From: an uncultured Spirochaetota bacterium
GTDB taxonomy: Bacteria > Spirochaetota > Brevinematia > Brevinematales > JAOACQ01
Reading direction: 5' to 3'
Assembly (NCBI GenBank): GCA_963835575.1
Contig: CAWIGG010000002.1
Coordinates: forward strand, 608,001-672,000
Length of the DNA: 64,000 nucleotides
The notes under the pieces are model-generated. The model had not been told where the DNA came from, searched no databases, and worked only from the letters and a program-made list of their open reading frames with translations. Positions 57,514 to 63,999 of the stretch are shown here, one piece after another (position 1 is the stretch's first letter; the number at the start of each line of letters is the position of its first letter). Both the position numbers and the translations under genes were made by a program.

Positions 57514-57756
57514 AATTTTTAAGGCGCTTTCCTTTTTTTTAACCCAAAAATAATTCTCAGCATCTTTTATTTTTCCTATAGCTTGTCCCTCGGCGGGTAC
57601 TTCGTGTCTTCCCTACTTTCTGTTAAACCTCACCCTTATTCGCGTGAATTCGCGGATTACCCGTTCTTTTATCTCCAATTGACTTTTTCATCGTTTCCGT
57701 TTAATATTTATACCTCATTTTTCTTTGAAAAATAATTCGTCTAAAGGAGTTTTCCA

Positions 57757-60489: not shown

Positions 60490-60904
60490 AATTATACTCC
60501 ATCATAATTAATCATTCCTATTTATCGGAAAAACTCCTATATTTAAACACCAAGACTCCAAAATCACCAAGAATCACCAAGGAAATTTAATCCATTTCAT
60601 TGCTCATCTTGACAGTCACTTGCTTAATCCTGTTTGTGTATCTTTGTGTTCTTGACATCTTGATGCTTCAATACATTATTATAAAATGTCGAAAGCCTAA
60701 TAATAGGGAAGTGTAAATTAATCAGACACCTTAAATACATCCTGTTCTCTGTGCTCTCCTTTTTCTCAGTAATCTCTGTGTTTTTCAATAAAAGGATAAG
60801 TATTATTATCATTATGATGACCATTTCCCGGTTCTTCGTGCCTTCCCGTCTTGTAAGCTATATTTTGGAGAAAAAGTTTACAAAAAATAATTCTTCAGTA
60901 GAAT

Positions 60905-61077
60905 ACCTCCTTGTGGAAGTTGTTGCTCACTACCCGCCTGCCTTCTGGTTTGAAACCAAGGCACACAGGAAGATTGCCAACTCCACAAGGACCGTTTTGG
61001 TCTCTTAAAACAATTGCCAGGATATTCCCTTGAATAATCCTGTCGCTCATTACAAGGGTGCCGAAATGGAACGGTCT
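60905..61077 (+). ncRNA. Bridge RNA (target-binding loop + donor-binding loop)
   Basis: Two stem-internal-loop-hairpin modules whose loop segments match the target flanks and element ends (detailed in findings); 5' and 3' limits approximate. Confidence 0.85.
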
Positions 61078-61103
61078 GATATTTTAATCTGCTGGAGGAA
61101 AAA

Positions 61104-62378
61104 ATGCTAATCCGGGATGCTATCGGGATTGATCCCGATTCACAACAGTATGTGTGTATGTATGTCAAAGCGGAAGACTGGAAAACGGAACGGAAAGCCT
61201 TTCCGGTTACCACAAGCGGCCTTGATAATCTGATCGAATGGACTCGGTCGAAAAATGACCCGATTATCGCCATCGAGGGAAGCAACGGGCAGAGTAAGCC
61301 CTTAGAGAAAGTGCTTCGTAAGGAATCGATGACCTATTACTCGTTTAAAGCAAGGGATGTTGAACAAAAGAGGAAAAGCCAGCTCCCGGCGGGAAAGAAC
61401 AACGAAAAGGATGCTCATGCCGCCGCTCTTTTGGCTTTAGAGCGTGAAATGAACGGTTCTCTGGAAAAATGGAGAAGGGTCTATCCTGTTGACAGCGAAT
61501 TACAGACGATAACCCGGAAATATGAAAGTGTAAGCGGCAGGATCACAGAGGAAATATCCGGGCTGTGGAAGCTTTTATGCGAGGCTTCCCCGGATGTTTA
61601 CCTGTTCTTAAGCGGCAAGAATATGGAGACGGATAACAGACGTAATGTTTTGAATAGCGCAGGAGTACTGAATTTGCTGTGTAATTGTCCCGATTTAAGC
61701 CAATGGAGGAGATTAAGCGCGGAGAAAATGAAAGAGCTGATGGGTGGAGGCTCTTATAGAGGCCGGGATAAGACCATCGCCGGCTTACAGGTAATAGCCC
61801 AAAGAATCTTGGGTGTAGCGGGCCCCATTTCCATGATGATCCGGCAATCTGCTGAAAATATTATTCTTTTGAAAGGCCATAAGGAAGAAATGAAGAAGAT
61901 TTTGGATAATCTGGCTGAATCCAGGGAAGCTGTCCGGGTTTTAGCCTATGACGAATCCAATGGCAATGGGTTGAAAGGAATCGGCGTGATCACTGCCTCT
62001 ACGATGATAGCCGAGATTATTCATATCAATCGTTTTGTTAAAGAGGACAGCCTGGCGTTATATGCGGGATTCGGTATGGTGGAAGATGAAACCGGAAAGA
62101 AAAATAGGGGTGAAAGAAAGAAGATGAAACATACTCACGATTATAACCGCCGTTTGAAAAACGCCTTTATGAACGCGGCCAAGAACTTTGTTCACTGGAA
62201 TCCGGACCACCATATTTCCGGCATGCACAGGAATTTGATAAAAAATGGAATGAGCAGGCTCGAAGCGAATAAAAGGGTTGCCAGAGCATTAGTCCGTAAG
62301 ATATTTCGGATATTAAAGGACTATGAGTCTGAAAATATAAGGAAAATGGAAGAAAACGGGGTGGCAAAAGTGGGTTAG
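61104..62378 (+). CDS. IS110-family recombinase/transposase
   Basis: GID (D10), IEG (E58), KNNEKDA (N100/D103), GIGVITAS..IAEI..I.RF....L..YAG, N.RLK, VARAL.R.I; GGAGG RBS. Confidence 0.92.
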   Translation: MLIRDAIGIDPDSQQYVCMYVKAEDWKTERKAFPVTTSGLDNLIEWTRSKNDPIIAIEGSNGQSKPLEKVLRKESMTYYSFKARDVEQKRKSQLPAGKNNEKDAHAAALLALEREMNGSLEKWRRVYPVDSELQTITRKYESVSGRITEEISGLWKLLCEASPDVYLFLSGKNMETDNRRNVLNSAGVLNLLCNCPDLSQWRRLSAEKMKELMGGGSYRGRDKTIAGLQVIAQRILGVAGPISMMIRQSAENIILLKGHKEEMKKILDNLAESREAVRVLAYDESNGNGLKGIGVITASTMIAEIIHINRFVKEDSLALYAGFGMVEDETGKKNRGERKKMKHTHDYNRRLKNAFMNAAKNFVHWNPDHHISGMHRNLIKNGMSRLEANKRVARALVRKIFRILKDYESENIRKMEENGVAKVG

Positions 62379-62601
62379 AAACCCTGCGGAAATATTCCGC
62401 GAGCAACACCTCCATTTTCTTCCGCCTTTATTATATCGAACTACTGAGGTTTTTTAAATATTTTGATTGTTTTTTTCTTGACTTAACTAAAACAATCTTC
62501 CTGTTGAACTAAACCCCGTTTCTCTATTCGCGTCCATTCGCGGGTAACCTCGTTTGCGCCCCTTGGTGCTCTTAGTGTTTTTGTGGTTAAATTAAAGTAC
62601 C

Positions 62602-63999
62602 TCAATCTTTATTCATTTCATAGATCTCATTAAAAAGGTAGGAATTGGCGAGGAAGATTTTCAAAAGCTCCGGGTCAAAATGGGCGGGATTGACCCTGTC
62701 ATCGCCATGGGAGATGATATCGACGGCTTTTTCATGAGAGAGCTCGTATTTGTAAGGTCTGGCGCTGCGGAGCGCGTCATAGATATCGGCGAAAGCCATG
62801 ATCCGCCCGGGGAGCGGTATAAGCTTGCCCTTCAGGCGCTCCGGGTAGCCGCTTCCGTCCCATTTTTCATGGTGATAAAGCGCGATCTGCCGGGCCGTCA
62901 TCAGCACGAGCGAACCGGCGCCGTCAAATATTTTTCCGCCGATAACAGTGTGTTTTTCCATGATTTTCCATTCTTTTTGAGAAAGCCGCCCTTTTTTAAA
63001 GAGGATCCTGTCGGGAATTCCGACCTTGCCGACGTCATGCATGGGGGCCGCGAAATAGAGGTTTTCAACTTCTTCACCTGAAAGTCCCATTTTTTCGGCT
63101 AAAAGCTTGACGTAAAGGCTCACTCTCTTGATATGGGCTCCAGTTTCCGGGTCCCTCAGCTCGGCGATAATGGCCATACGGTTGATCGCTTCGAGATAGG
63201 CGAAATCGACCTTACGGAAGGCATTGTCTCTTTCCCACAAAGTCTTTTCCAGATCTGCTTTTTTTATTTCTATTTCCCTGTAAAGGCGGGTGAATTTATT
63301 TGACAGAACAAAAGAAGTGCTCAATATGAAGATCAGAAAGCCGTATGGGGAAAACGGCGCCAGCGCGTTCAGCAGCGGGGATGTGATGACATTCTTTGAA
63401 ATAATAATGTCCATGATAACAGTCAGGATCATGAAAATCATGGGATAGAGCATGACCAGAGCGTCTTTATTTTTTCTGCGTTCTCTAAGCAGAATGATAA
63501 ATATTGAAATAATAGGAATAGTCCAGCTGTATTGGTAAATATTGATATTCAGGAAATCCCATAAAGCCGGTTCGCTACTGATCAGCGCCGTAATAATACA
63601 GCCCGCCGAAACGGCGTAAAAAATGTAATGAAGAATGTTCCTTTTTTGATTAAAATGCCGCAGGATGAACTCGAAAAATAAAGGGACAACGGTAAATAAA
63701 CAGATGTATTCAATTCTTTTCAGGAGCATAAAATCCTGTATTATGAAATACTTCACTTCCGAATGCATGAAAAAATAGATTGAGAAGAACAGGCAGAAGA
63801 GGCCGAAAAATAAATTATCGGAGCCTTTTTCAATCCTGACATAGAACAGTAAAAAATAAAGGCCGAAAACTATGATGACAATAGTGAGAAAAGTTTTAAT
63901 ATATTCGGTTAAAAAATAATGATGCGTAATTTTTTGATATGGGGCGATCATGATAAGCCCGTTTATCAATCCGGCTTCATAGGAAAAATATCCTTTCAC
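62602..63999 (-). CDS. Membrane-bound HD-GYP phosphodiesterase with 7TM-DISM-like sensor (5' end probably beyond the window)
   Basis: ~7 TM helices, then RDPETGAH..RV, MHDVGK, HHEKWDGSGYP, ADIYDAL, HFDP. Confidence 0.9.
   Translation of the reverse strand: MKGYFSYEAGLINGLIMIAPYQKITHHYFLTEYIKTFLTIVIIVFGLYFLLFYVRIEKGSDNLFFGLFCLFFSIYFFMHSEVKYFIIQDFMLLKRIEYICLFTVVPLFFEFILRHFNQKRNILHYIFYAVSAGCIITALISSEPALWDFLNINIYQYSWTIPIISIFIILLRERRKNKDALVMLYPMIFMILTVIMDIIISKNVITSPLLNALAPFSPYGFLIFILSTSFVLSNKFTRLYREIEIKKADLEKTLWERDNAFRKVDFAYLEAINRMAIIAELRDPETGAHIKRVSLYVKLLAEKMGLSGEEVENLYFAAPMHDVGKVGIPDRILFKKGRLSQKEWKIMEKHTVIGGKIFDGAGSLVLMTARQIALYHHEKWDGSGYPERLKGKLIPLPGRIMAFADIYDALRSARPYKYELSHEKAVDIISHGDDRVNPAHFDPELLKIFLANSYLFNEIYEMNKD

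Follow-up and report, generated by a model that had tools for sequence, protein, structure and literature searches.

IS621 of E. coli, an insertion sequence (IS) of the IS110 group, provides the bridge RNA paradigm (PMC11208160), and its structures have been described (8WT6-8WT9; PMC11208158). In each of its two RNA loops the 5' side has the sequence of the top strand and the 3' side is complementary to it, with the core taking part (PMC11208160); its core is CT, handshake guides are described, and a serine that is called conserved, S241, together with D102, is required in that mutation of either residue abolishes activity (PMC11208158). Other described relatives are ISCro4 (PDB 9T56) and IS622 (10.1101/2025.05.14.653916), which are bridge recombinases for genome engineering; ISPpu9 and ISPpu10 of Pseudomonas putida, IS110-family elements present in several copies, each in one repeated extragenic type of target (PMC12288879; 10.64898/2026.03.19.712850); and the IS1111 group, which has short left ends and long right ends (PMC11208160). 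Here we describe an element of this kind in a window of 64,000 nucleotides, the whole stretch of DNA analysed, from an uncultured Spirochaetota bacterium (GCA_963835575.1, contig CAWIGG010000002.1, positions 608,001 to 672,000); positions below are those of the window, and all features lie on its forward strand. With a probability of roughly 0.93, we consider it to be an intact, recently active IS110-family insertion sequence of the IS110 group, with its RNA upstream of the gene and four readable guides, the recent activity being deduced from the number and near-identity of its copies.

The element proper occupies 60852..62498 (1,647 bp, one core copy included), and six copies align over this span in the host genome (4.39 Mb in seven contigs, denoted G000). 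Its left end, 252 bp before the ATG, contains the RNA, and its right end is 120 bp. On the left, host DNA ends with the left target half (LT; CTTCCCGT, 60842..60849), which is followed by the left copy of the core CT (60850..60851) and by the first bases of the left end, the right donor (RD; TGTAA, 60852..60856). On the right, the last bases of the element form the left donor (LD; TAAAACAAT, 62488..62496, found in the copies and in relatives), followed by the right copy of CT (62497..62498) and by the right target half (RT; TCCTGT, 62499..62504), which is again host DNA and is identical in all six copies. The LT flank is kept in 6/6 copies except for T/C at 60849 and one C/T. The left junctions of the six read ...CTTCC(C/T)G(T/C)-CT-TGTAAGC and the right ones ...TAAAACAAT-CT-TCCTGT, with CT at both junctions throughout. 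A previous interpretation made from the letters alone (the sequence-only reading), all of whose coordinates and strings are present as given when read directly in the sequence, had called a complete IS110 element at 60849..62504 with a 4-nt TCTT overlap. The call of a complete element is borne out by the IS110-type recombinase, the upstream two-loop RNA and the copies with the same boundaries, but the span has to be narrowed to 60852-62498 and the overlap to two bases. In 2/6 copies C replaces the T that opens the left TCTT, and this base is therefore assigned to the target; in relatives (locus numbers prefixed L), CT is followed at the right junction by C (L027, L022, L028, L036), T (L023, L025, L015) or A (L031), and the left end always starts CT-TGTAA or CT-TGTAG. 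Because only CT is common to both junctions across copies and relatives, the shared core is CT, as in IS621 (PMC11208158), and TCTT is a coincidence of one copy. The two-base shared core, the lack of terminal inverted repeats and the precise reconstitution of the target are those of the IS110 group.

The search for other copies and for empty sites, both of which the sequence-only reading had put forward as checks, gave clear results. Over 1,651 aligned bases, variation among the six copies is confined to the flanking T/C and four internal positions; the RNA region is identical in all, and the recombinase open reading frame (ORF) is intact in every copy. The predicted empty site CTTCCCGTCTTCCTGT occurs exactly 11 times in the genome, and with a pyrimidine allowed at the eighth base (CTTCCCGYCTTCCTGT) there are 16 intact occurrences, compared with 0 for the reversed pattern. 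This 16-mer target is found 16 times in G000, six times in G006 and once in G009, and is absent from four same-genus genomes. The element is also found, at ~99% identity, on a contig from a second metagenome run (X2), where it occupies another word-array site. This contig and the window diverge nowhere but before 60842 and beyond 62504; it is an independent insertion with its break points at the same places. No orthologous empty site was found in the four congeners, in which the flanking gene is 66% identical at best and no syntenic spacer lent itself to comparison.

The target CTTCCCG(C/T)-CT-TCCTGT forms the outermost word in a dispersed array of 8-letter words and lies where the final two words meet in arrays such as CTTCGTGC-CTTCCCGT-CTTCCTGT. 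A loose word-array pattern gave 204 arrays, no better than the 214 of its reversed control, and only counts of terminal words and of inverted pairs were used from it: CTTCCTGT is by far the commonest terminal word (48/204), and neighbouring arrays are mostly oriented towards each other as inverted brackets, with 15 such pairs against one in the opposite arrangement. Such arrays, built from CTTCGTGC, CTTCCCGT and CTTCCTGT, occur genome-wide, for example at 57608-57623 (G000:C2:665608); they are often followed by ATTCGCG-type repeats, and the inverted brackets lie 77-960 bp apart.

The non-coding left end folds as the sequence-only reading had described. Over 60880-61100 both modules were recovered at -75.7 kcal/mol (z = -5.46), and 0/200 shuffles folded as well. 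Fold, alignment and consensus pairs together delimit a target-binding module at 60909..60990, which consists of an outer stem (60909-60922 / 60978-60990), an internal loop and an inner hairpin (60939-60963) and whose 15 stem pairs include compensatory changes, and a donor-binding module at 60991..61076. The left loop of the target module, CTACCCGCCT (60930-60939), matches the left flank plus core, CTTCCCGTCT (60842-60851), at 8/10 positions, and within it the left target guide (LTG; TACCCGC plus CT, 60931..60939) has the same sense as the target's top strand, fitting sites with TTCCCGT+CT at 7/9 and sites with TTCCCGC+CT at 8/9. The right loop, ACAGGAAGA (60965-60973), is the exact reverse complement of TCTTCCTGT (62496-62504; 9/9), and this match extends to 11/11 between 60965-60975 and the LD-core-RT junction at 62494-62504. 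It comprises the right target guide (RTG; ACAGGA plus AG, 60965..60972), complementary to CT+TCCTGT at 8/8, and ATT (60973..60975), a handshake-type guide complementary to AAT, the last bases of the right end; handshake guides are a concept described for IS621 (PMC11208158), and AGATTGCC is kept in 11/14 aligned relatives. At 6+2 nt the RTG is longer than the four-base RTG given for IS621 (PMC11208160). In the donor module, the left donor guide (LDG; TAAAACAAT, 61006..61014) equals 62488-62496 at 9/9, and the right donor guide (RDG; 61050..61057) consists of TTACAAG, the reverse complement of CTTGTAA at 60850-60856, that is, of the core with RD (7/7 from 61050-61056), and one handshake base, G61057. 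Each guide thus lies on the strand laid down by the IS621 rule, LTG and RTG matching the target and LDG and RDG the joined ends, and the four-guide logic of IS621 claimed from the letters alone could be read off in full.

Further support for the guides comes from relatives, through the covariation of scaffold and loops that had been named beforehand as a test. A protein search returned 215 homologs at E <= 1e-10, the closest 80%, 59% and 58% identical and the next a large group at ~45% and of 420-525 aa, almost all from metagenomes. Thirty loci were drawn from genome contigs and two from kin genomes. In 14 elements the region upstream of the gene aligns well, with stems and donor loops conserved and the two target loops hypervariable, and RNAalifold on these 14 RNAs gave 31 pairs, 14 of which carry at least one compensatory double change. 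The variable RTGs fit their own right flanks: 8/8 in the element itself (ACAGGAAG with CTTCCTGT), in L023 and L024 (ATTGAAAG with CTTTCAAT) and in L028 (TGTTGGAG with CTCCAACA), 7/7 in L027 (CACGGAG with CTCCGTG), L025 (CCAGAAG with CTTCTGG), L022 (GATTGAG with CTCAATC) and L036 (AGGGAGAG with CTCTCCC, where the contig ends), and 5/7 plus two G:T wobbles in L015 (CACGGAG with CTTTGTG). Counting the six non-core bases in eight elements, 41/47 match, a sum reached by 2/40,320 re-pairings. On the left side, L023 matches at 7/7, L031, L038 and L039 at 6/7, and the element itself and L025 at 5/7, and the LTG total of 42/63 is reached by 8/362,880 re-pairings. These counts leave out L024, a near-duplicate of L023, and the left side of L028, where UGUCAG faces CGTCAA with four matches and two wobbles. 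The donor guides change with the ends as well: L015 and L036 have TAAAACTAT in both the LDG and the right end, and in L028 an RDG of CTACAAG is paired with a left end of CTTGTAG. The base after the AAG of the RDG, a handshake position in IS621 (PMC11208158), is T in L023, L038 and L039, whose last LT base is A, and G in L025, L031 and L033, where that base is C, with L015 as an exception. The two target loops vary from element to element and follow the flanks of each.

In L027 (1307-1482) and L038 (1318-1482) the core part of the LTG is GT and the target core is CT, and L027 and L033 fit their left flanks poorly; these cases may be off-target or half-matched insertions, or guides altered after insertion. 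A covariance model of the RNA (R1) found nothing in 150 other sampled genomes of the phylum, and among sequences outside its own building it matched L029 alone, at 45 bits. L029 (1322-1478) is a second element ~44 kb away in the metagenome-assembled genome of L028; its RTG is the same but its donor loop is very dissimilar, its ends are not recognisable, and it is probably decayed.

Two promoter-like arrangements accompany the RNA. The right end carries TTGACT (62478..62483) and the left end TAAGCT (60854..60859), the -35 and -10 halves of a predicted junction promoter that are 17 bp apart, counted by hand, across the joined ends. Both are conserved in relatives: TTGAC[AT] stands 4 nt before TAAAAC in 13/13 relatives' right ends, and TA...T hexamers lie at the same place in the left ends of the nine relatives read. 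By their sequence, the joined right and left ends would form a promoter, and the placing of a -35 in the right end and a -10 in the left end is shared with IS621. IS621 does not share the second site, an internal sigma-70-like promoter TTTACA-16-TAGAAT (60877..60904; promoter scan, 10/12 matches) that ends 5 nt before the RNA stem, with a -10-like (T)AGTA. box aligned at its position in relatives. The donor loops overlap the conserved junction promoter, and donor-loop conservation alone consequently proves little; this, together with the imperfect left guide, could be taken to mean that the upstream structure is a mere leader or promoter region, that the protein itself reads the word array and that the loop matches are by-products of conserved ends. 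We regard this as very improbable, because no part of the RNA varies more than the target loops, and yet these fit their own, mutually different flanks (TTCAAT, CCAACA, CAATC, CTCCC, TCTGG), which recognition by protein does not predict.

The recombinase gene (61104..62378) encodes 424 aa with an RuvC-like domain at residues 7-161 and a Tnp domain at 290-368, recognized by Pfam PF01548 (RuvC-like N-terminal; 49.8 bits against a cut-off of 29, 4e-13) and PF02371 (Tnp; 49.3 bits against 21.3, 7e-13). Compared as a single sequence with solved structures it matched IS621 alone (E = 0.004), while a profile of 22 homologs matched IS621 at E = 2.4e-12 and ISCro4 at 8e-8. An AlphaFold2 model (mean pLDDT, the predicted local distance difference test, 88.4) retrieved IS621 chains best in Foldseek (E = 7e-11, ~15% identity), then ISCro4 (E = 2e-10), TIGR-TasR and Nop5-type proteins. 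The protein is longer than the 326-aa IS621, and most of the extra length would be accounted for in the model by a helical insert at ~163-232 (window ~61590-61800) between two long coiled-coil helices, which holds the invariant residues Y166, G171, G187, W201, G214 and R221. The low identity to IS621, the NCBIfam score given below and the lack of an Rfam match agree with the divergent lineage suggested by the sequence-only reading.

As aligned, the active-site positions differ from those of IS621 in two residues. In the profile alignment D11, E60, D102, D105 and S241 of IS621 face D10, E58, N100, D103 and T330; a single-sequence alignment instead sets D103 against IS621 D102, and the profile alignment is preferred because it is anchored on the shared DA motif. 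The Asn at the third DEDD position is invariant in the homolog alignment (A1), and K.N..DA is present in 119 of the 120 homologs listed. Thr330 is followed by an invariant Gly331 and lies in the loop MVEDETGKKNRG, which has no Ser; from its place in the alignment Thr330 would supply the hydroxyl at the nucleophile position and is the candidate nucleophile. At this position the 120 homologs listed have Thr-Gly in 112 cases and Ser-Gly in four, with three mis-parsed by the pattern and one without a match, and three other IS110-type genes of the genome carry Ser. A literature search found no threonine form of an IS110 recombinase, and the word 'threonine' is absent from the available text of PMC11208158 and of 10.1101/2024.06.21.599552. 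The Thr and Asn of the clade at the catalytic Ser241 and Asp102 positions of IS621 are the most novel point of the analysis. It is tempting to go further and propose, at a little under even odds, that the element stands for a large clade of bridge recombinases, mostly from uncultured organisms, whose composite active site has been re-tooled: Thr in place of the Ser nucleophile (implying a 5'-phosphothreonine intermediate) and Asn in place of the Asp by which the nucleophile loop is held, together with a ~70-residue helical insert at the coiled-coil tip and a bridge RNA with its own promoter, which could arise from the integrated copy and not from the circle alone.

The same two substitutions admit a quite different interpretation, namely a genuine element whose recombinase is disabled by Asn for Asp102 and Thr for Ser241 and whose six copies were mobilised in trans by a different IS110-family enzyme of the genome. 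At least three further IS110-type genes there carry Ser at the nucleophile position and could act in this way, and D102 and S241 mutants of IS621 are dead (PMC11208158). Thr-Gly, in 112 of 117 parsable homologs, and K.N..DA are nevertheless near-universal among the homologs listed and are therefore fixed clade features and not decay, all six ORFs are intact, no hit of the covariance model of the RNA lies next to the other IS110 genes (L052, L054, L061), and the guides fit the element's own ends. Mobilisation in trans accordingly has very little probability left to it.

Several observations count against an intact, bridge RNA-guided IS110 element and have to be set beside this evidence. Its protein has Asn100 and Thr330 where IS621 needs Asp102 and Ser241, and it scores 102.2 bits with the NCBIfam equivalog NF033542 (transpos_IS110), under the 140-bit cut-off; on this score it is a family relative outside the trusted range of that model. 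The LTG has A60932 opposite T in all six sites and C60937 opposite T in 4/6, the core positions of the LDG are TG and not CT, and among relatives the left side misfits in L027 (4/7), L033 (2/7) and L015 (1/7, or 7/7 if shifted one base). An Rfam scan of 60500-62800 matched no family, giving two chance-level hits (E > 0.8) outside the RNA, none of the RNA runs listed contained the stretch, and neither a circle junction nor empty-site joints were present in the contigs of four DNA runs, although contigs cannot show rare forms. That unrelated hairpins in a non-coding end merely happen to fit the flanks has nothing but the shortness of each match (7-10 nt) in its favour and was rejected as next to impossible on the compensatory stem pairs, the re-pairing counts, the z-score, the six copies and the 16 empty sites against 0 in the control.

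Taking the element as an intact IS110-group member, we propose that it encodes the 424-aa RuvC-like/Tnp recombinase and a bridge RNA of ~170 nt (about 60909-61080). The first internal loop would recognize the target, specifying CTTCCCG(C/T)-CT-TCCTGT, and the TAAAACAAT and TTACAAG of the second loop would read the element's own joined ends. Exchange would take place at the CT core, with the consequence that CT flanks the element on both sides and that excision restores the target. The joined ends would create the promoter TTGACT-17 bp-TAAGCT, and the second, internal promoter would lie just before the RNA. By analogy with IS621, the RNA would be made, a circle formed and the same chemistry used, and the loops would be reprogrammable.

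The element resembles IS621 in its two-domain recombinase, in a left-end RNA with target loop then donor loop, in the strand rule of the loop sides with the core included, in the CT core and the handshake-type bases after the core guides, and in a target within a dispersed genomic repeat; it differs in sequence and length, in the modelled helices between the coiled-coil helices, in the Asn and Thr of the active site, in the longer RTG, in the additional promoter-like site and in LDG core positions that do not match CT. With ISCro4 and IS622 it shares the fold and the family profile match, but these are close kin of IS621, whereas the element here falls in a distinct clade, whose proteins are 420-480 aa long and come almost entirely from uncultured sediment and bioreactor-type bacteria. 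Like ISPpu9 and ISPpu10 it is present in several copies, each in one kind of repeated extragenic sequence, although for those elements the available reports describe REP (repetitive extragenic) palindromes or one conserved intergenic sequence, in contrast to the terminal array word here. It shares protein family and RNA-guided logic with the IS1111 group and the seekRNA elements, but has a long left end with the RNA and a short right end. Set beside these described elements, it is new and rather divergent, and it is of a known kind, described in 2024; predicted IS110 RNAs are catalogued in the supplements of PMC11208160, and this clade may be among them. Bridge recombinases are under development as programmable tools for DNA insertion, excision and inversion, with work so far, in the sources available, on IS621 and close kin. 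The present element is a naturally validated orthologue, with six copies and with target, donor and RNA known, and its ~15% identity to IS621 and longer RTG make it a ready candidate for programmable-recombination assays. Its Thr and Asn are a naturally occurring test of the residues that catalysis requires, and in the host genome the arrays of 8-letter words act as landing sites for an element guided by RNA.

Two of the six copies are split between the RNA and the ATG (window-equivalent 61091-61094) by a nested 1.68-kb IS, at G000:C2:1643158-1644832 and G000:C5:162932-164606, each with the 4-bp duplication GCTG. The nested IS encodes a 488-aa DUF772 + DDE_Tnp_1_6 transposase and is present in 24 copies, with a preference for targets of the pattern ..TTTT..GCTG..AAAA... 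Composite transposition, in which the two interrupted copies, each with its nested IS, would have moved as a unit, was considered and rejected: the site fits the preference of this 24-copy IS, and the interrupted copies belong to different single nucleotide polymorphism haplotypes, from which the two hits are taken to be independent.

A 5'-truncated remnant of a sister element lies at G000:C2:1329628-1330118; it is 86% identical, has two stops and has lost the RNA, and its right junction, TAAAACAAT-CT-CTGTGG, shows a different target half. The recombinase ORF of the element ends with TAG at 62376-62378, and the same frame runs on for 22 codons (KPCGNIPRATPPFSS..., 62376-62447) that resemble a C-terminal tail translated in relatives (P0003: KPRGESPQTTPPFSP). 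That stop recurs in an 86%-identical fragment, and P0002, which is 80% identical, terminates at this position too; the stop could be an old truncation, a DNA-level constraint of the right end, or a site of read-through.

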